Position numbers and translations under genes: made by a program. DNA of 64,000 nucleotides from Anaerolineae bacterium (GTDB lineage: Bacteria > Chloroflexota > Anaerolineae > S140-20), in NCBI GenBank assembly GCA_027021705.1, contig JALUTT010000152.1, positions 1-64,000 on the forward strand, written 5' to 3'. This document shows, in pieces, positions 1,284-55,494 of the stretch (position 1 is its first letter; each line of letters starts with the position of its first letter). The notes under the pieces are model-generated. The model did no database searches and was not told where the DNA came from. It saw only the letters and a program-made list of their open reading frames with translations.

Positions 1284-2216
1284 TTGATCCTCATCACCGG
1301 TGCAACGGGCTTCATCGGGCGCCACCTAACGCGCCGGCTGGCCCGGGAGGGCTGGCCGGTGCGTTGCATGCTGCGCCCAGGACGTGGTGCCAGCCGGCTC
1401 GCCGGCGGCGTCTCCGTCGAAGTCGTCACGGCAACCGTGGACGACCCGCCGGCCCTCCGAGCGGCCATGCTGGGCGTGGACACCGTCATCCACCTGGTGG
1501 GGACCAAAGTCGAGCGGGGAGACCAGACCTTTGAGGCGATCAACTACCGGGGGACGGTGAACGTGCTCGAAGCGGCCCAGGAGGCCGGCGTCCGCCGCTT
1601 CATCCACCTCAGCTACTTGGGGGCCGACCGCTCCTCGGCCTATCCCTTCCTGCGGAGCAAGGGACAGGCCGACGAGGCCGTCCGCTCCAGCGGGATGGCC
1701 TACACCATCCTGCGCCCCTCCATCGTCTACGGTCCGGGAGACGACTTCACCACCCACCTGGCGATGCTCATCAAGGTGACCCCTTTCGTCTTCCCGGTGT
1801 TGGGGGATGGCCGGAGCCGTCTCCAGCCCATCCACGTGGAGGACCTGGCCCGCTGCATCGAGGCCACCCTGCGCGATCCGACGACGGTGGGCCAGGTGAT
1901 CCCCCTGGGCGGCCCTCAGCACCTGACCTACGAGGAAGCCCTGACCACCATTATGCGGGTGATCGGCTCCCGGCGGGTCCGCCTGCACGTGCGACGTCCG
2001 CTGATGCAGCGTTGGGTGGAGATCACGGGGAGGTTCTTCGCCCGCCCCCTGGTCACGTTGGCCGATCTCGACCTTCTGGCGATGGACAACATCACCGACC
2101 TGGTCAGCGTTCCCCGCCACTTCAAGTTCGAGCCCCGCCGTTTCGCCGACAGCCTGGACTACCTGCGGGGTCAGCCTTGGCGGCGGCTCTTCTGGCGGCT
2201 GCTCCGCGCCGGTTGA
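1284..2216 (+). CDS. NAD(P)-dependent epimerase/SDR, complex I NDUFA9-like
   Basis: N-terminal ILITGATGFIG Rossmann motif, RPSIVYG, QPIHVEDLA. Confidence 0.8.
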   Translation: MILITGATGFIGRHLTRRLAREGWPVRCMLRPGRGASRLAGGVSVEVVTATVDDPPALRAAMLGVDTVIHLVGTKVERGDQTFEAINYRGTVNVLEAAQEAGVRRFIHLSYLGADRSSAYPFLRSKGQADEAVRSSGMAYTILRPSIVYGPGDDFTTHLAMLIKVTPFVFPVLGDGRSRLQPIHVEDLARCIEATLRDPTTVGQVIPLGGPQHLTYEEALTTIMRVIGSRRVRLHVRRPLMQRWVEITGRFFARPLVTLADLDLLAMDNITDLVSVPRHFKFEPRRFADSLDYLRGQPWRRLFWRLLRAG

Positions 2217-2241
2217 CGATCGGCCTGCCCTGTGCTATACT
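2213..2241 (+). promoter_or_regulatory. sigma70-type promoter for the HNH gene
   Basis: TTGACG-17 bp-TATACT with TG extended -10. Confidence 0.6.
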
Positions 2242-2326
2242 GCTTCTTGGCGGGCAGTGTTCAGTGGTTCAAACCTGGCCTGGCGTTCCCCTGCTGGGAA
2301 GTCTGTGGCCATTCCAGGTGGTCTCG

Positions 2327-2836
2327 ATGGAACCTCACCAACCTGTGCTTCTGCTCAATGCCAATTACGAGCCGCTGGGCGTCTGCACCATCCGACGGGC
2401 GATGGGGTTGCTGATCGTCGGGAAGGCGGAGATCGTGCTGGATGGGCGAGGACTGATCCACACCCCGACACGGGCCTTCCCTCGCCCCTCGGTCATTCGC
2501 CTCTCCTATATGGTGCGTCGCCCACGCCCTCGGGTGAAGTTGAGCCGCCGGGAGGTCTTCCGTCGGGACAACTACACCTGCCAGTACTGCGGACGCCGCA
2601 CGGGTCGGCTGACCCTCGACCACGTGATCCCCCGTCACCGGGGAGGGACCCATAGTTGGGAGAACCTGGTGGCTGCCTGCCCCCAGTGCAACCGCCGCAA
2701 GGGGGGGCGCACCCTTCAGGAAGCCCATATGCACCTGCTCCGCCAGCCCTTCGAGCCGGCTCCCACGGCCCTCTACCTCTACGGGCGTTACCTGGAGGAG
2801 AACCAAGAGTGGGAACCCTTCCTCGCCGGCTGGTAG
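2327..2836 (+). CDS. HNH endonuclease (McrA-like, stand-alone)
   Basis: VLLLNANYEPL N-terminus; RDNYTCQYCG, TLDHVIP..GG..SWENLVAACPQCN. Confidence 0.9.
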   Translation: MEPHQPVLLLNANYEPLGVCTIRRAMGLLIVGKAEIVLDGRGLIHTPTRAFPRPSVIRLSYMVRRPRPRVKLSRREVFRRDNYTCQYCGRRTGRLTLDHVIPRHRGGTHSWENLVAACPQCNRRKGGRTLQEAHMHLLRQPFEPAPTALYLYGRYLEENQEWEPFLAGW

Positions 2837-2882
2837 GCCCCTGGCACCGTCGGTTCGCGGCGGTGCTGATCTCAGACTCCCA

Positions 2883-4004
2883 TCACGGCCTCGCCGAGAG
2901 GCCGTTTTTCGTCTTCATCGCCTCCAGCAGGGCCAGCATCCCCCCGGCGACGAGGGAGTGGCCTCCCAGGACCGCCGGCAGGGGGGCCTCGCGAGCTGCT
3001 TGGGTGAAGCGACGCAGGAAGGGGTCCCTCACCTTCTCCACCTCGAAGAGGTCCGAGTAGTAGCGGTCGGGGGCCGAGGGCCAACGTCCGTGGGCAGCCA
3101 TCAACACCCGATCATCCAGGAAGACCGCTTCGGCCATCTCCCCCAGCCGTCGGAAGAACGCCTCCGGTCCCACCAGCTTGAGGAGCTCCGCCAGCAGCGA
3201 CCGGACCTCCCCCCGGGCCAGGCGTCCGCTGGCCCGCATCCCCCGTTCCTCGGCGAAGACCCGTACCCAGCAGCGCGTTTCTCGTTCCAGCGCCGCCCAC
3301 ACTGACGCTGAGACGCGGCCGGCGATGATAACCTGCCCCCCCTCTCGCCGGAGCACGGCGAGCGCCTCTTCCAGGCGGCTCAGGTCCCACTCCAGCCGGC
3401 GGAGGAGGGCGCGGCTGTGAGCGCCGGCCTCTGGGTGCAGGGCCAGGATCATCGCGTCCACGGGCGTGTCCACGTCGAACTGGGTGGCGGCTGAGCGGGG
3501 CAGCGTCTCCACCGGAAATCCGGCCTTTTCGGCCAGCACCCAGGCTAGGGCATTGTCCGTGGACAGCACCTCGGCCAGCGGGGGGATGGCTGAGGCCGGC
3601 GTGAAGGCCACCCAGTCACTGGAGTGGAGGTTGTTGGTCAGCGCGGTGCGTCGCTCAATCGTCAGCCGGGTGACGACCTGGGCCATCTGGGCAGGGGAGA
3701 GGAGGGGAGCACTTCCGGCTCCTATGTAGAAGGCCCGCGCCACACTGTAACGGGTGATCAGGTCGGCCAACCGCCGTCCGAAGTGGAAAGGCTCCCCTTC
3801 CCGATCCAGGTCCACGATGATGGGATGGGAGGTCAGCCCTTCAGTCCAGGCAGGGTCATCGGTGGCCACCACGATCTGAGAGACCTGGGGGATCGTGGCC
3901 GCCTTCTCCAGCGTGTCCAGGGCGATGGCCTGGCGGATTCGGCGGAGGGTCCTTTCGATGGGGCTGTTCCCCCCACCGCCGTCGAACAAGAGCAGGGTGA
4001 CCAT
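2883..4004 (-). CDS. Hypothetical protein, possibly CofC/GT-A-like nucleotidyltransferase fold
   Basis: Long ORF with IVVATDD, FHFG and FDVDTPVD motifs; start placed at MVTLLLF. Confidence 0.5.
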   Translation of the reverse strand: MVTLLLFDGGGGNSPIERTLRRIRQAIALDTLEKAATIPQVSQIVVATDDPAWTEGLTSHPIIVDLDREGEPFHFGRRLADLITRYSVARAFYIGAGSAPLLSPAQMAQVVTRLTIERRTALTNNLHSSDWVAFTPASAIPPLAEVLSTDNALAWVLAEKAGFPVETLPRSAATQFDVDTPVDAMILALHPEAGAHSRALLRRLEWDLSRLEEALAVLRREGGQVIIAGRVSASVWAALERETRCWVRVFAEERGMRASGRLARGEVRSLLAELLKLVGPEAFFRRLGEMAEAVFLDDRVLMAAHGRWPSAPDRYYSDLFEVEKVRDPFLRRFTQAAREAPLPAVLGGHSLVAGGMLALLEAMKTKNGLSARP

Positions 4005-5601: not shown

Positions 5602-6527
5602 CAGAAGTTGCCGAAGACGTTGAGTTCCATAACCTGGAGGACCGCTGGCCCTAGCAGGACGATCCAGATGGTGGGGAAGATGAAGAAGACCAGCGGGAAC
5701 ATCATCTTGACCGGGGCCTGGTGGGCTTTCTCCTCGGCCCGCTGGCGGCGACGCATCCGCATCTGGTCCGACTGAATGCGTAGGACCTGGGCGATGCTGA
5801 CGCCCAACTGATCGGCCTGGATGATAGCGGCCACAAAAGTGGTCACATCGGCGACTTCCGTGCGGTCGGCCATGTTGCGCAGCGCCTCACGTCGGGGCTT
5901 GCCCAGCCGGATCTCCTGGATGACGCGGGCGAACTCCGTCGCCAGCGCGTTGTCCCATTTCTCGACCACCTTGTTCATCGCCGCATCGAAGCCCAGACCG
6001 GCCTCGACGCAGATCGTCAGCAGGTCCAACGCATCGGGCAGCGCCTTGACGATCTCGTCCTGACGCCGACGAATCTTGCTCCCCAGCCAGAGGGCAGGGA
6101 AGAGGTAGCCGGTGCCACCGGCGAGACCGGTGAAGAGGAGCCGGCGGGACATAGGGGCCTTGAGCACGGTGAAGAGGAGGAAGAAGAGGCCGGCCAGAAG
6201 CACTGCAGCGATCAGCCGGAACCCCATAAACTCGGCTGCGGACCAGTTGTAGGGATTGCCCGCCAATTCCAGTTTGTGTCGAGTGGATTCCAGGGTCTTC
6301 TGGGGGGTGAAGCGAGTGATGAAGTCGGCCACGCTGCGGACCATCGGCACGATGATCCGCTGGGTAAAGGGGATGGAAAGCTCGATCTCCTCCAACGTCA
6401 CCGGGGTTTCCCGACCGCTGTACTCCAACAGACGCTCTTGGATGGTGTCGCTGGGGTCGGGGGCTGCCAATCCGATGAAGACCAGGACGATGCCCAATCC
6501 CACCAAAGCCGCTACCAGGAAAATCAT
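5601..6527 (-). CDS. tadC: Tad pilus assembly protein TadC (T2SS F family)
   Basis: LPDALDLLTICVEAGLGF, QADQLG, RQRAEEKA..APVKM. Confidence 0.9.
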   Translation of the reverse strand: MIFLVAALVGLGIVLVFIGLAAPDPSDTIQERLLEYSGRETPVTLEEIELSIPFTQRIIVPMVRSVADFITRFTPQKTLESTRHKLELAGNPYNWSAAEFMGFRLIAAVLLAGLFFLLFTVLKAPMSRRLLFTGLAGGTGYLFPALWLGSKIRRRQDEIVKALPDALDLLTICVEAGLGFDAAMNKVVEKWDNALATEFARVIQEIRLGKPRREALRNMADRTEVADVTTFVAAIIQADQLGVSIAQVLRIQSDQMRMRRRQRAEEKAHQAPVKMMFPLVFFIFPTIWIVLLGPAVLQVMELNVFGNF

Positions 6528-6574
6528 CCTCCACCTCCCTGGAGAGTCCCTACACGCTCTTCCTCGAACACTGA

Positions 6575-7540
6575 TCAGACCTCGATGCTCACGATCTTGC
6601 GGATGACAAAGGTACCGATGCCGAGCAGGATGGCGATGATGCTGAGCATAATCCAACCGCAGGGGTGTCGGAACATCCGCAGGATGTACTCCCGGTTCAG
6701 TACCATTAGCAGGAGCATGATGGCGATGGGGAGTCCACCGATGACGTAGCCGGTGATGCGTCCCTGGGCCGTCATCACCGAGATCTCCCCTTTGATCCGA
6801 ACCCGCTCGCGGATAGTGTAGCTGATCACGTCCAGGATTTCGGCCAGGTTGCCGCCCACCTCTCGCTGGATGTTGATGGCCGTGATCATCAGGTCCAGGT
6901 CCTCGCTGTCAATGCGACGCAGCAGGTTGGCCAGCGCCTGTTCCATTGAGAGACCCAACTGGACCTCCTGGACCACCCGTCCGAACTCTGGTCCGATGGG
7001 TGGGGGCATCTCTTTGGAGATGGCTTCCATAGCTTGGAGGACGCTGTAGCCGGAGCGCAGGCCGTTGACCATCAGGTTGATGGCGTCGCCGAGTTGGTCG
7101 TTGAACTGCTTCAGGCGGCGTCCTTGGCGGTAGCGAACGTAGAATCGGGGGGCGAAGTAGCCACCCAGGGCCGCGACGGCGGGGAGGATGATTCCTCCGA
7201 AGAGGAAGTAGCTGGCCCCTGTGGCCAAAATGACGGTGATGACCTGGAGGGCCAGGAACTCGCCCACCGTGAACTTTAGGTCGGCCCGGGCCAACTGGGT
7301 AGCCATCTTCTCGGCCCAGGTGCGGCCGGCCAGGGCCCGGTTCAACCCTTCGGTCAGAGGCGAGCGACGATCCTCCTTGCGGACAGCCTGTTCCTCGCCT
7401 TTGCCCAACTCATAGCCGGCCTCAGCGTAGCGTCCCAGCCGCTCCTGGACGACCGCCTCTCGATTGCGGAGAGAGGAGACAACCCCTACAGCCACCAGGA
7501 GAAGCCCCAGACCTCCGAGGGCGATGACCATCGTTACCAT
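6575..7540 (-). CDS. tadB: Tad pilus assembly protein TadB
   Basis: F..QLGDAI..LRSGYS, IQREVGGNLAEIL, TAQGR. Confidence 0.9.
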   Translation of the reverse strand: MVTMVIALGGLGLLLVAVGVVSSLRNREAVVQERLGRYAEAGYELGKGEEQAVRKEDRRSPLTEGLNRALAGRTWAEKMATQLARADLKFTVGEFLALQVITVILATGASYFLFGGIILPAVAALGGYFAPRFYVRYRQGRRLKQFNDQLGDAINLMVNGLRSGYSVLQAMEAISKEMPPPIGPEFGRVVQEVQLGLSMEQALANLLRRIDSEDLDLMITAINIQREVGGNLAEILDVISYTIRERVRIKGEISVMTAQGRITGYVIGGLPIAIMLLLMVLNREYILRMFRHPCGWIMLSIIAILLGIGTFVIRKIVSIEV

Positions 7541-51457: not shown

Positions 51458-53149
51458 ATGAGCTCACAACAGCGTATCGCTCTGCGCGTCGAAGGGATGA
51501 CCTGTGATTCCTGCGCCGCCCACGTCACCCGCGCCCTGCAGGGGGTGCCCGGCGTCGTCACCGTGGAGGTGCCGGGCTGGCAGTCGGCCCAGGCCCAGGT
51601 GGTGGCCGAGGCCGGCGTTCCCGACGAGGTCCTGGTTCGGGCCGTCGAGGCCGCCGGCTATCGGGCCGCCGTCCGAGAACGCCGGCCCCTCGAGCGGGAG
51701 GAGAGCCGGAGGGAGGTCCTGGGAGGCTTTCGGCTCCAGGGCCGCGGCCCCTTCGACCTGATGGTCATCGGGGGTGGGTCGGCCGGCTTCGCCGCGGCCA
51801 TCCGTGGGGCGGAGTTGGGTGCGCGGGTGGGGATGGTGAACGATGGGGCCATCGGCCTCGGCGGCACCTGCGTCAACATCGGCTGTGTCCCCAGCAAGAC
51901 CCTCATCCGCACGGCCGAGGCGTGGCACAAGGCCGGCCATCACCCCTTCACCGGGGTGCACACCCGCCAGGAGCGCCTCGACTGGTCCCAGGTTATCGCT
52001 CAGAAGGACGAGCTGGTGAGGGAGCTCCGCCAGGCCAAGTACAGCGACGTGCTCCGGGCCTATCCCCAGATCACCCTCATCGAAGGGCGGGCCCGCTTCA
52101 ACGATGATGGAACCGTCTCCGTCGGCGACGAGGTCTATCGGGCCGACAAGTACGTGATCACGACCGGGGCTCGCCCCCGCCTGCCCGACCTGCCGGGGGC
52201 CGACGAGGTCGAAGTGCTGACCAGCACCACGGCGATGGCCCTGCCAACCCAGCCCCGATCCCTCATCGTCCTGGGCGGGCGCTTCGTGGCCCTGGAGCTG
52301 GGGCAGACCTTCGCCCGCTTTGGAACCGAGGTGACGATCCTGCAACGGAGCACCCGCATCATCCCCCAGCACGAGCCGGAGATCGGCGAGGCTCTGCGGG
52401 GCTACCTGGAGGATGAAGGGCTCACCGTGGTCACCGGCGTGCGGCTGCTGGCGCTGCGGGCCGAGGGCGATGAGAAGGTGGTCGTCGCAGAGGTGAGGGG
52501 CCGGGTGCGGGAGTTTCGCGCCCAGGAGGTGATGGCCGCCCTGGGGCGCGTTCCGAACACCGACGGCCTGGGGCTCGTGGAGGCCGGCGTTGCGCTGGGG
52601 TCGAAAGGGGAGGTGCTGGTGGATGCGACGATGCAGACCTCCAATCCCGACATCTACGCAGCCGGCGACGTCACGGCCCTGGCCAACTACGTCTACGTGG
52701 CCGCGATGGGGGGGGTGATCGCGGCCGAGAACGCCCTGACCGGCACCCAGCGGCGTCTGGACCTGTCGGTGCTGCCGGAGGTGATGTTCACCGATCCCCA
52801 GGTGGCCACCGTGGGGCTGACCGAAGCCCAGGCCCGCCGGCTGGGCCACCAGGTCAAGACCGTCGTCCTGCCCCTGGAGCACGTGCCCCGGGCGCTGGCG
52901 GCGCGGGATACGCGGGGGCTGATCAAGGTGGTTGCCGACCAGGCGACGGACCGGCTGCTGGGGGTCCACCTGCTGGCCGCCGAGGCCGGCGAGGTGGTCC
53001 AGACGGCCGCGATGGCCCTGCGGTACGGGGCCCGGGTGGCCGACCTGACGCAGATGCTCTTCCCCTACCTGACGATGGTGGAGGGGCTGAAGCTGGCGGC
53101 CCTGGCCTTCGAGAAGGACGTGACCAAGTTGAGTTGCTGCGCGGGGTAG
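51458..53149 (+). CDS. merA: Mercury(II) reductase
   Basis: NmerA GMTCDSC; GGGSAG; GGTCVNIGCVPSK; FPYLTMVEGLKL; C-terminal LSCCAG. Confidence 0.95.
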   Translation: MSSQQRIALRVEGMTCDSCAAHVTRALQGVPGVVTVEVPGWQSAQAQVVAEAGVPDEVLVRAVEAAGYRAAVRERRPLEREESRREVLGGFRLQGRGPFDLMVIGGGSAGFAAAIRGAELGARVGMVNDGAIGLGGTCVNIGCVPSKTLIRTAEAWHKAGHHPFTGVHTRQERLDWSQVIAQKDELVRELRQAKYSDVLRAYPQITLIEGRARFNDDGTVSVGDEVYRADKYVITTGARPRLPDLPGADEVEVLTSTTAMALPTQPRSLIVLGGRFVALELGQTFARFGTEVTILQRSTRIIPQHEPEIGEALRGYLEDEGLTVVTGVRLLALRAEGDEKVVVAEVRGRVREFRAQEVMAALGRVPNTDGLGLVEAGVALGSKGEVLVDATMQTSNPDIYAAGDVTALANYVYVAAMGGVIAAENALTGTQRRLDLSVLPEVMFTDPQVATVGLTEAQARRLGHQVKTVVLPLEHVPRALAARDTRGLIKVVADQATDRLLGVHLLAAEAGEVVQTAAMALRYGARVADLTQMLFPYLTMVEGLKLAALAFEKDVTKLSCCAG

Positions 53150-53152
53150 GGC

Positions 53153-54040
53153 CTACGGAGGGGCATCCAGGCCCAGGTACTCGACGATGGCCTGAAGGAA
53201 GGTCTCCAGCACCTCGATGCGGTGGGGCAGCGTTCGATGCACCTCGCGGGGGTCCACCCGCCAGTAGATGTGGACGAGCAGGTTGCGGAAGCGGGCCATA
53301 TCGGCCATCACGTCGGCCACGTCCGGCGGGAGGATTCCCCCTCGGGCCAGGCTCTGGAAGACGGAAGCGTAGTCCTCGGCGATGGGAAGCCCCAGCGTGG
53401 CGATGAGGTGATTGCCGATGTTCAGGCAGCACTCGGTGGCCGTCTGGAGCCGTCGTTCCACAACGTCCTGGGCGTCGCTATCGGCCAGGTAGGCTGCTTC
53501 GGAGAGCCGGGCTTTCTCCCGGAGCTTGCGCAGGTCGGCGTCGAGCCGGCGGAGCTGTTCCAGGACCTTCTCACGGTTCACGGCCATAGCAGCCCCTTTC
53601 GGTTGTCGGAGCTGGCGGACGAAAGCCGCCAATGCCTCCTGCTTCAGGCGGCGGGCTTCGGGGTAGAGGGCGAGGACCCGCTCACGGAAGGCGGCCTCAC
53701 CCCCGCCATCGGCGGGGGAAAGCCGTCGTCCCTCCGTGAGCACGGTAAAGGCCAGGGTAGGGGGGGCCTGGCGCAAGTTGATCAGCGTGAAGTCATCGCT
53801 CTCCAGAAGGCGGCTCAGCCGGCGATAGAGGGTCTGGTCCAGGACCTCCATCGCTTCCCGGTCCAGGGCTTCCAAGGGAAGGTAGGCCAGGTCCAGGTCA
53901 CTCAGGGGAGTGGCTTCCTCACGGCTGTAGGAGCCGAACAGGAAGAGGACGAGCCGGTCGGCCAGGTCGGCCGCCAGCGCTTCCAGCAGGGGAAGTTTCT
54001 CCCGGTAAAGGGGTCGGGTTCTCTGAAGCTTGTGGACCAT
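53153..54040 (-). CDS. Fused MntA-type nucleotidyltransferase + HepT (HEPN/DUF86) RNase
   Basis: FGSY(x9)DLD MNT motif in frame with RNLLVHIY (RX4HXY); second start possible at 53587. Confidence 0.8.
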   Translation of the reverse strand: MVHKLQRTRPLYREKLPLLEALAADLADRLVLFLFGSYSREEATPLSDLDLAYLPLEALDREAMEVLDQTLYRRLSRLLESDDFTLINLRQAPPTLAFTVLTEGRRLSPADGGGEAAFRERVLALYPEARRLKQEALAAFVRQLRQPKGAAMAVNREKVLEQLRRLDADLRKLREKARLSEAAYLADSDAQDVVERRLQTATECCLNIGNHLIATLGLPIAEDYASVFQSLARGGILPPDVADVMADMARFRNLLVHIYWRVDPREVHRTLPHRIEVLETFLQAIVEYLGLDAPP

Positions 54041-54095
54041 TGGGTAGCCCTCGCTGCCCGTATTGTACCTTCTGTGGGCTTTCCAGTCAACCGGC

Positions 54096-54236
54096 GAGTG
54101 AGCGAGAGAGTGGTCCATAGCAGGCCGTCCACGAATTTCTCACAAATGCACGAATGAGGCGGTCCTTAATTCGTGTATTCGTGCCCCATTCGTGGACGGC
54201 TAGTCTCTCTATCTCCAAAGATATGGGTAATCACCG
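54096..54236. mobile_element. Copy D of the 155-bp element (left terminal repeat missing)
   Basis: Near-identical interior and right terminal repeat TGGGTAATCACCG. Confidence 0.75.
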
Positions 54237-54250
54237 GAACCGGTTAGGAG

Positions 54251-54384
54251 CGGTGATGACCCACGAGTGAGCGAGGGAACGGGCCGTGGTGGGCCGTCCG
54301 CGAATCCTCACGAATGCACGAATGGGTCGGACTCTAGTCCGTGTATTCGTGCCCCATTCGTGGACGGCTATCCCGATAATCACC
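54251..54384. mobile_element. Diverged copy E of the 155-bp element
   Basis: CGGTGATGACCCA...GTGTATTCGTGCCCCATTCGTGGACGGC...TAATCACC. Confidence 0.65.
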
Positions 54385-54407
54385 AAGGTTAGGAGGGAGG
54401 TGTGCGT

Positions 54408-55145
54408 ATGAAGGAGCGAACGGGCTGGAGCTGGAGTCTGGGGGGCTCCGTGATCGCCAGTCTCTGCTGCTTTGGGCCGGCGGTGGCCGCCCTCGTCGGC
54501 GTCGGTGGGGCCTCATTCCTGCTGGGCCTGACGCGCTACCGGCTGCCGCTGCTGATCATCGGCCTGGGCTTCGCCCTCCTGGGGGTGGGCATGGCCCTGC
54601 GCCAGAGCGCCCGGACTTGTGACCGGGAGCAGCACCGGCGCAACCTGTGGCGCTTCCCCACGGTGACGCTGATCACCTTTGTGGCGACCTATGGTCTGCT
54701 GACCTACGTCTTTCCCGTGGCCGTCTACAACGTCCTGGGGGCTACGTCGGGGATCCGGGAAGTACGGTCGGAGCGTCCGGCGGCTCCTGCGCCGGCCTCG
54801 CCATCCCAGCTTCCCGACGATGCCGCGCCGAGCCGCTCCGCCCCGGCGCAGGAGGCCCTGCCGCTGTCGCAGGAAGGGCCGGCGCCGGCAACGCCTACGC
54901 CGGAGGCAGGACTGCGGCGGGTGACCCTGGCCGTCAGCGGGATGACCTGAAGCGGCTGCGTGGCTGCCGTGCGCAGCATCCTCCTGCAGCAGCCGGGCGT
55001 CGTCGAGGCCGGGGCCGACTTGCGGCGACAGCAGGGATGGGCGGTCTACGACCCGGCCCGGATCGCGCCCCAGGATCTGGCCGATGCCCTCTCGCCCTAC
55101 TATCCGAGCCGGGTGGTCGAAGACCGGCCCTACACAGAGCAGTGA
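54408..55145 (+). CDS. MerT-like transporter fused to an HMA/MerP domain with in-frame TGA at 54948-54950 (probable selenocysteine; alternatively a nonsense mutation)
   Basis: ASLCCFGP MerT motif and 3 TMs; VTLAVSGMT-TGA-SGCVAAVRSIL..PGV..A..VYDP continues in frame. Confidence 0.75.
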
Positions 55146-55158
55146 GCGAGGAGGAAAG

Positions 55159-55494
55159 ATGTCCGACGTGACGACCAAGCTGATCGTTCGCGCCCCGGCG
55201 GCGACGGAGACGAAGGTCTACCTGACGCCGGAGGTGGAGAAGAACCTGGATGTCCGGCTGGCCCGCATCGAGGGGCACGTCCGCTCCATCCGCCGGATGC
55301 TGGCGGAACATCAGGACTGCAATAGCCTGCTGATCCAGATGGCGGCGGTCCGGGCGGCGATGACCCAGGCGATGGCCAAGCTGCTGGAAGGGCACATCGA
55401 GACTTGCGTGACCGAGTGCGTGGCGACCGAGGAAGGGGCAGATGCCCTGGCCGGCCTGAAGAAGGCCCTGGCCATCGTGCTCAAGAGCACGTAG
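55159..55494 (+). CDS. CsoR/RcnR family metal-sensing repressor
   Basis: RLARIEGHVRSI..M...C..LL.Q..AV...H...C (x-C-H-C fingerprint); RBS GAGGAG. Confidence 0.9.
   Translation: MSDVTTKLIVRAPAATETKVYLTPEVEKNLDVRLARIEGHVRSIRRMLAEHQDCNSLLIQMAAVRAAMTQAMAKLLEGHIETCVTECVATEEGADALAGLKKALAIVLKST

Follow-up and report, generated by a model that had tools for sequence, protein, structure and literature searches.

A candidate selenocysteine at the HMA metal site of a MerT-like fusion protein in Chloroflexota

A MerT-like fusion gene with an in-frame TGA

We analyzed a 64,000-nucleotide stretch of an Anaerolineae genome from the phylum Chloroflexota (GenBank assembly GCA_027021705.1, contig JALUTT010000152.1, positions 1 to 64,000, forward strand), called the window here, and focused on a gene that joins a MerT-like membrane part to an HMA metal-binding domain. 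With translation table 11 this gene is split into two open reading frames (ORFs), one at 54402-54950 (182 aa) and one at 54960-55145 (61 aa). When the TGA at the junction is read as selenocysteine (Sec, U), a single product of 245 residues results, and a second TGA serves as its stop. The features of the gene are as follows.

54408..55145, + strand: gene for the candidate MerT-like/linker/HMA selenoprotein, 245 residues, including the terminal TGA stop at 55143-55145
54392-54400, + strand: Shine-Dalgarno-like run GGAGGGAGG, upstream of the ATG at 54408
54408..54731, + strand: MerT-like membrane part, residues 1-108, three helices, with weak NCBIfam matches to MerT, MerF and MerTP models
54732..54914, + strand: Pro/Ala/Ser-rich linker, residues 109-169, predicted to be disordered and hypervariable in orthologs
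54915..55142, + strand: HMA domain, residues 170-245, metal loop G-M-T-U181-S-G-C184
54948..54950, + strand: in-frame TGA, residue 181, read here as Sec

We consider it likely that this gene encodes one MerTP-type selenoprotein, in which an outward-facing HMA domain with a Sec/Cys pair serves Hg(II) uptake. At 54933-54962 the codons are gtc agc ggg atg acc TGA agc ggc tgc gtg, which puts the TGA at the first-Cys position of the HMA metal-binding loop (GMT-U-SGC), and the read-through protein runs ...RRVTLAVSGMT-U-SGCVAAVRSILLQQPGV...RPYTEQ. With C substituted for U, the HMA model PF00403 covers residues 173-228 with a score of 31.2 bits (cut-off 24.8). Because this match spans the TGA, the domain is complete only with read-through; its first strand precedes the codon and the remainder follows it. 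The initial annotation of this stretch, a set of notes made from the letters alone, had described a TGA at the first-Cys place of a GMTCxxC motif that splits the frame at 54950, an HMA domain continuing in frame to 55145, and a MerT-like N-terminus joined to it by a Pro/Ala linker. All of this is borne out by the DNA and by the domain match.

A sequencing error does not explain the TGA. Over 54700-55200, contigs from four DNA runs in three studies have no differing letters, although one of these runs may be the window's own source and independent support for the codon therefore comes mainly from the orthologs described below. A private mutation or a misread base, which had been named as an outcome that would undo the selenoprotein proposal, is thus not what we find: the four runs are identical and eight further loci carry the TGA.

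The predicted protein combines recognizable elements of mercury transporters with some departures from them. In MerT proteins, a Cys-Cys pair lies in the first of three membrane helices, and the cytoplasmic loop that joins helices 2 and 3 holds a second Cys pair. Three hydrophobic segments are present in the N-terminal part of the window protein, as is the helix 1 pair (C20 and C21, within SLCCFGP at residues 18-24), which is nearly invariant. The second pair is not present; the Arg-rich loop between helices 2 and 3, RQSARTCDREQHRRNLW, has a single conserved Cys (C71). The linker holds 13 Ala and 12 Pro in 61 residues, and its length in the lineage is 55-95 residues, again rich in Pro and Ala. 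An AlphaFold2 run on a nine-row alignment placed helices at 13-38, 42-70 and 73-111, disorder at 111-165, and a beta-alpha-beta-beta-alpha-beta domain at 170-241 with a predicted local distance difference test score of 89-95 (strands 170-176, 198-204, 209-214 and 234-241; helices 182-193 and 221-228). Residue 181 directly precedes helix 182-193 in this model. Foldseek returned 35 PDB chains at E ≤ 0.001, and every listed match is an HMA domain, with MerP at rank 2 (1osd_A, template modeling (TM) score 0.91, 32% identity) and again at rank 7 (1afi). MerT has its N-terminus inside the cell and the helix 2-3 loop contains six Arg/Lys residues; together, and under the positive-inside rule, these place the linker and the HMA domain, by prediction, outside the cytoplasmic membrane, where MerP works.

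Conservation of the TGA and its probable decoding as selenocysteine

A word-index protein search gave 15 hits, which include the window's own truncated ORF (P0002) and an ATPase fragment (P0016). Twelve of the 14 homologs from this search (P0003-P0014, 40-59% identity) stop exactly at ...GMT and cover about 72% of the query, and P0015 (36% identity) continues with GMYCPAC and a full HMA domain. Alignment-based pattern scans then supplied the DNA of orthologs at eight loci from other Chloroflexota assemblies (L112, L113 and L116-L121; L111 is the window itself). All eight have a MerT-like N-terminus and a TGA at the same column. They represent seven distinct sequences, as L112 equals L117, and about five to six lineages with 40-57% mutual protein identity. 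Following the TGA, each of them keeps the frame as SGC[AVS]AAVR[SG]IL[LF]QQ[PS]GV... up to the true stop. The initial annotation had asked whether this column holds TGA or a Cys codon in related genomes; it is TGA, not TGC or TGT, in 8/8 loci, and Cys in P0015, in the genome G087 and in about 35 further fusions.

Gene callers and databases end the protein at the TGA, leaving a MerT-like protein of 180 residues whose tail is disordered, and an HMA part that would be a remnant or a small ORF starting at GTG 54960. The pattern of divergence argues against such termination. The window, L112, L113 and L116 share 51-57% identity among themselves, and the clade of L118-L121 has 40-46% identity to them. 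Between the clades, identity is 0.53 in the membrane part and 0.14 in the linker, compared to 0.73 in the HMA segment before the Sec column and 0.68 after it, where 17 columns are invariant. The segment past the TGA is therefore among the best-conserved parts of the protein and is very unlikely to be an untranslated remnant, which would not keep its frame, its invariant residues and this level of identity at such overall divergence. In addition, the TGA falls between strand 1 and the metal loop, so that neither half alone makes a domain, and it is kept in 8/8 loci with no other stop or frameshift. Although the hairpin that follows the TGA is not unusually stable as a single sequence, which would suit termination, we regard this explanation as very improbable.

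A profile search of 1.84 billion protein representatives returned 11,905 proteins at E ≤ 0.001, most of which simply have some HMA domain, and 45 at E ≤ 1e-30; 47 of the best 150 were inspected. Of these 47, ten end at ...GMT (P0017, P0011, P0019, P0021, P0025, P0026, P0032, P0041, P0056 and P0161), another, P0105, has 58 residues and matches nothing but the part past the TGA, and about 35 representatives fuse MerT to an HMA domain that has CxxC. The same phylum also holds a further Cys form, YMGCEGC (G087). In a profile survey of an even sample of 401 phylum genomes, among them the unpublished genome G282, the full Sec form was found only in the window's own genome (G000). The family comprises at least ten database clusters, all deposited as truncated hypothetical or "membrane" proteins.

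Starting from the single protein, a relatives search returned 60 relatives that were only HMA-domain matches in ATPases, with no ortholog, and a locus search returned 76 loci that were all HMA-only or composite matches. One of these loci, L035, is an ordinary CxxC HMA domain followed by out-of-frame sequence. Two proteins of another architecture carry TGA at the same HMA column: an exported, lipoprotein-like single-domain HMA protein with SGWT-U-NGC (L016, G039:C166, minus strand) and a single-domain HMA protein with a signal peptide and GMV-U-PIC (L153, G022:C14, about 930-1250). Both genomes belong to the same class as the window and both have SelB. A further locus of the phylum encodes another MerT fusion architecture, a 235-residue protein that joins a glutaredoxin-like domain (CGDC) to a MerT-like membrane part (SFCC) (L127, 1468-2175, minus strand, G344:C29).

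The organism has the machinery that Sec insertion would need. In G000, which is 94.9% complete, selA, selB, selC and selD, the genes that the initial annotation had named for a check, are all present, each above its curated cut-off. SelA scores 456 bits and SelB is encoded as well. The tRNA-Sec scores 72.5 bits (gathering score 47) and is called by ARAGORN as tRNA-SeC with anticodon TCA. SelD scores 375.9 bits and itself contains one in-frame TGA, in the translated context SCAG-U-ASK (L011, G000:C41, about 1441-2580), which we take to be the known active-site position of Sec-type SelD. Because this selD needs Sec at its UGA, the organism depends on UGA-to-Sec decoding. SelB is also found in 5/5 genomes that hold L116, L117, L118, L120 and L121.

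Downstream of the UGA lies a conserved hairpin that could direct Sec insertion as a selenocysteine insertion sequence (SECIS). Its elements, numbered by alignment column from the TGA, are these.

54954..54994, + strand: SECIS-like two-tier hairpin, from the RNAalifold consensus
54954-54959 / 54989-54994, + strand: outer stem (columns 7-12/42-47)
54963-54967 / 54973-54977, + strand: inner stem (columns 16-20/26-30), with the apical loop CGUGC at 54968-54972

Counted from the TGA, 63 nt were aligned across the eight loci; identity is 89%, and no column from 16 to 26 (GCUGCCGUGCG) varies. RNAalifold independently predicts the two-tier hairpin from the ortholog alignment; it pairs in 77/77 cells, compared to 15-58% in slid controls. 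The apical loop begins 17 nt past the UGA and has a G at its second position. bSECISearch looks for a stem-loop that follows the UGA at a short distance and whose apical loop contains a G, and both the distance and the G would be compatible with a bacterial SECIS by these criteria. In 54000-55300 no Rfam model matched above its gathering score; to our knowledge Rfam has no general bacterial SECIS model, and this null carries no weight for that reason. The initial annotation had named two hairpins, and both exist: CGGCTGC/GCAGCCG is the outer stem (columns 6-12/42-48), and GCTGCGTG/TGCGCAGC occupies columns 8-15/23-30. We conclude that the two-tier hairpin is a likely, but not proven, SECIS.

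Several observations weigh against a UGA decoded as Sec, or are weaker than such decoding would lead one to hope. The covariation is thin, as pair 9:45 (CG in four distinct sequences, UA in three) is the sole compensatory pair and probably reflects a single event. The observed hairpin score was reached by 15/500 shuffles, and the single-sequence fold of 54948-55010 is no stabler than shuffles (z 0.70). Single-codon columns, a measure of frozen synonymous sites, make up 4/11 of the SECIS zone and 8/60 elsewhere, a trend short of significance (one-sided Fisher p = 0.08), and the alternative 8-bp hairpin of columns 8-15/23-30, which shows no compensatory change, pairs in 91% of cells. SelB is present in 149/201 sampled phylum genomes, including both Cys-form genomes, which makes its co-occurrence with the Sec form uninformative. 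No RNA runs that hold the stretch of this gene were found, and the window protein lies under every curated cut-off for MerT, MerTP and selenoprotein models.

The TGA might also be read through without Sec, for instance if near-cognate tRNA-Cys, tRNA-Trp or a suppressor particular to the lineage put an ordinary amino acid at position 181. Nothing specific was found in favor of this explanation, and the evidence described above is set against it: a complete selABCD is present together with a selD that requires UGA-to-Sec decoding, the UGA is aligned with a metal-binding Cys in the classical Sec/Cys pattern, and a conserved hairpin stands at the distance expected of a bacterial SECIS. Additionally, the true stop is itself TGA in 8/8 orthologs. 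TGA is thus a normal stop in these genes and the internal one is context-dependent, making general suppression unlikely. We give this kind of read-through, like termination, very little chance. Taken together, the TGA in 8/8 homologous loci, Cys in the more distant homologs and the Sec machinery support the selenoprotein first suggested by the initial annotation, and the UGA at 54948-54950 is very probably decoded as Sec.

The mer neighborhood and the predicted metal

The genes around the candidate selenoprotein gene bear on its substrate.

51458..53149, + strand: merA, mercuric reductase with an N-terminal HMA domain (GMTCDSC) and a C-terminal CC (TIGR02053, 560.8 bits, cut-off 454.45)
53153-54118, - strand: nucleotidyltransferase (Polbeta/NTP_transf_2) fused to a HepT-like RNase in a single 321-residue ORF (Pfam)
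55159..55494, + strand: CsoR-family metal-sensing repressor (PF02583, 76.3 bits)

As the initial annotation had noted, a MerA with GMTCDSC is encoded nearby; merA lies 1.26 kb upstream of the selenoprotein gene on the same strand. MerA is encoded directly upstream in L117, L118 and L121, and MerB plus MerA are upstream in L116. In L120 a MerA-like gene lies 4 kb upstream and is not adjacent. L119 has no adjacent MerA, and redoxin, CcmH and MerE-like/thioredoxin genes are found there instead. MerR is encoded near the gene in L113 and L118. The CsoR-family gene of the window starts 13 nt past the stop of the selenoprotein gene, a gap short enough that the two are probably cotranscribed, and CsoR-like genes also occur near the gene in L116 (5459-5899) and L117 (5425-5754). 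The conserved mer-operon setting therefore supports Hg(II) as the substrate.

If the gene product is a mercury transporter, its parts suggest a route. SelB and tRNA-Sec, recruited by the hairpin 4-47 nt past the U of the UGA, would insert Sec181. The tethered selenolate/thiolate pair Sec181-x-x-Cys184 would then capture Hg(II) outside the cell, and the HMA domain could hand it to C20/C21 of helix 1. From there Hg(II) would cross the membrane and reach MerA by way of the cytoplasmic Cys71, to be reduced to Hg(0). The initial annotation had pictured a Hg scavenger that feeds MerA. Conserved merA adjacency upholds the genomic side of this idea, and the metal and the hand-off to MerA are still matters of prediction.

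Some features of the locus and of the chemistry sit uneasily with this mechanism. In the window, the nucleotidyltransferase/HepT gene on the opposite strand separates merA from the selenoprotein gene; nucleotidyltransferase and HepT are usually a two-gene toxin-antitoxin pair. The adjoining regulator is of the CsoR type rather than MerR, and CsoR-type regulators are usually copper-sensing. Finally, the very tight binding of Hg to selenolate could be an obstacle to its transfer to thiols.

Because the regulator is of the CsoR type, a role with copper or another soft metal has to be weighed. The protein would then be a genuine selenoprotein for Cu(I), Ag, Cd or Au, controlled by a CsoR-type repressor, and the closeness of merA would be secondary. 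The repressor gene 13 nt downstream and its counterparts in L116 and L117 fit this alternative, as do the similar scores of the HMA domain on CopZ (31.3 bits) and MerP (29.5 bits) models, the predominance of copper-handling HMA domains among the best Foldseek matches, and the lack of a directly adjacent MerA in L119 and L120. Against these stand a MerA that is adjacent or nearby in the window, L116, L117, L118 and L121 and about 4 kb off in L120, MerB in L116 and MerR in L113 and L118. The membrane part has the MerT CC-x-x-P signature, and its best NCBIfam match is MerTP_fusion. Furthermore, the scanned loci showed no copper-exporting ATPase beside the gene. The CsoR-family repressor found at three loci may itself be a CsoR-type mercury sensor. 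On balance, we judge a metal other than mercury unlikely, and a role of the MerTP-type selenoprotein in Hg uptake seems fairly probable.

A more elaborate picture combines two ideas, and we put it forward as doubtful. In some Chloroflexota of metal-rich settings, the selenolate HMA domain could act outside the cell as a mercury "fishing line" on its long flexible tether to the MerT channel, a picture in which the outward-facing UxxC domain also exists as the free secreted or lipoprotein forms of the same class (G039 and G022). Moreover, the position of the UGA, with the transporter before it and the scavenger domain after it, could make the gene a selenium-gated switch. With selenium, the cell would make the full scavenger-transporter, and with none it would make a bare 180-residue MerT-like channel, tying mercury uptake capacity to selenium supply.

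Further observations concern the sequences that flank the gene and its orthologs. At 54090-54391, just upstream of the ribosome-binding site, are two copies, about 168 nt apart, of a palindromic element with 32-nt inverted arms. We had considered these inverted repeats as a mer operator and rejected the idea because the genome contains 49 matches to the element; about 40 are nearly full-length, with 80-92% identity. It is a dispersed repeat resembling a miniature inverted-repeat transposable element or a repetitive extragenic palindrome. The merA of L116 (1572-3248) lies in three frames, with HMA at 1572-2066, Pyr_redox_2 at 1916-3214 and the dimerization domain at 2595-3248; these breaks could be frameshifts or assembly errors. 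In L118 (1917-2333), L119 (5816-6226), L120 (5834-6250) and L121 (1804-2220), the gene is followed by a conserved hydrophobic ORF that encodes 137-139 residues and matches no Pfam model. In L116 (4623-5363) and L117 (3157-3915) the next ORF has 247-253 residues, that of L116 with an NPC....LP motif. We do not claim a CcdA/DsbD identity for these two, as DsbD_TM scores 16 bits against 27.1 in L117 and does not match in L116. The downstream hydrophobic ORFs may supply reductant to an outward-facing Sec/Cys site. In L119, a protein with a MerE-like N-terminus (PF05052, 26.6 bits) and a thioredoxin_3 domain is encoded at 6452-6997, next to redoxin genes and near the selenoprotein gene.

Among bacterial pathways of metal detoxification, the best-studied one begins with mercury uptake through MerT and MerP, and Hg-Se chemistry has a central place in mercury toxicology. 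With a natural MerTP that has a Sec/Cys capture site, one could test directly whether Hg(II) capture or ligand exchange benefits from selenolate.

Comparison with known metal-binding families and selenoproteins

Curated models describe this family only distantly. The best NCBIfam match of the window protein is MerTP_fusion (NF033556) at 54.8 bits against a cut-off of 180, with orthologs at 60.9-72.6. UxxU_metal_bind (NF041115) gives 45.6 bits, and 44.8-60.1 in orthologs, against a cut-off of 95; the motif here is UxxC, not UxxU. The scores are 29.5 bits for MerP (TIGR02052, cut-off 92.55), 31.3 bits for the CopZ model and 18.1 bits for MerT (NF010314, cut-off 150). PF02411 (MerT) has no match at E ≤ 0.01 in the window protein, and among the homologs a precomputed Pfam column gives it just for P0005 and P0013. 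All NCBIfam cut-offs likewise lie above the scores of four orthologs and ten truncated forms. No curated model catches the family now, and adding one would correct the annotation of Chloroflexota mer operons.

Two known fusion families are closest in layout. NF033556 MerTP proteins, the best match of the window protein and of four orthologs, have a three-helix MerT-like part followed by a MerP-like HMA domain. This lineage differs from them in having Sec for the first HMA Cys, a Pro/Ala linker of 55-95 residues and one loop Cys. MerT_CopZ_Se (NF045683) describes a MerT/CopZ fusion-like heavy metal transport selenoprotein. Judged from its name and the aligned profile positions, it has a MerT part (about 15-119) and an HMA part (about 149-231), and the lineage aligns to both. 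The window protein scores 23.1 bits on this model and orthologs and truncated forms score 20-37, against a cut-off of 375; we conclude that the window family is a different lineage.

Sec has been placed at related metal sites in other proteins. P-type ATPases of the UxxC kind are ATP-driven exporters with the motif on the cytoplasmic side, whereas here the HMA domain is attached to a MerT-type importer and its predicted orientation is outward. In the passages of PMC9312934 and PMC13188914, P-type cation-transporting ATPase selenoproteins are listed with UxxC; we read their Sec as the first Cys of an HMA-type metal loop, a reading of our own that goes beyond those passages. The review-table passages also list NF041115 (UxxU). 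MerT-family selenoproteins with CU or C/SxxU appear in passages of 10.1101/2022.07.06.499078 and, as "Putative mercuric transport protein", of PMC13188914. As described there, they share with this lineage a MerT-related membrane protein, metal-handling loci and Sec as a metal ligand. In our reading, again beyond the passages themselves, their CU motif replaces the CC pair of MerT, whereas here the CC (C20, C21) is kept and Sec lies in the fused HMA domain.

No entry for a MerT-HMA or MerTP selenoprotein with UxxC occurs in the passages of PMC9312934, PMC13188914, PMC13326102, PMC1976440 and 10.1101/2022.07.06.499078, and literature searches for such a protein gave none. The review-table passages list no MerT-HMA fusion, NF045683 or PF00403, and the main text of the BSepDB paper has no mercury or MerT term. 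The high interest that the initial annotation saw in the gene nevertheless overstates its novelty, as earlier records already include Sec at HMA and MerT metal sites and NF045683, the model for a MerT/CopZ fusion selenoprotein. What is new is an uncatalogued Chloroflexota lineage, far below curated cut-offs and deposited as truncated hypothetical proteins. Its HMA domain can be compared with MerP (TIGR02052; 1osd and 1afi), which it matches in fold (TM 0.89-0.91, 30-32% identity) and in its predicted role, Hg(II) capture outside the cytoplasm. MerP itself is free in the periplasm and has CxxC, whereas in this lineage the domain is covalently tethered to its transporter and would carry UxxC.

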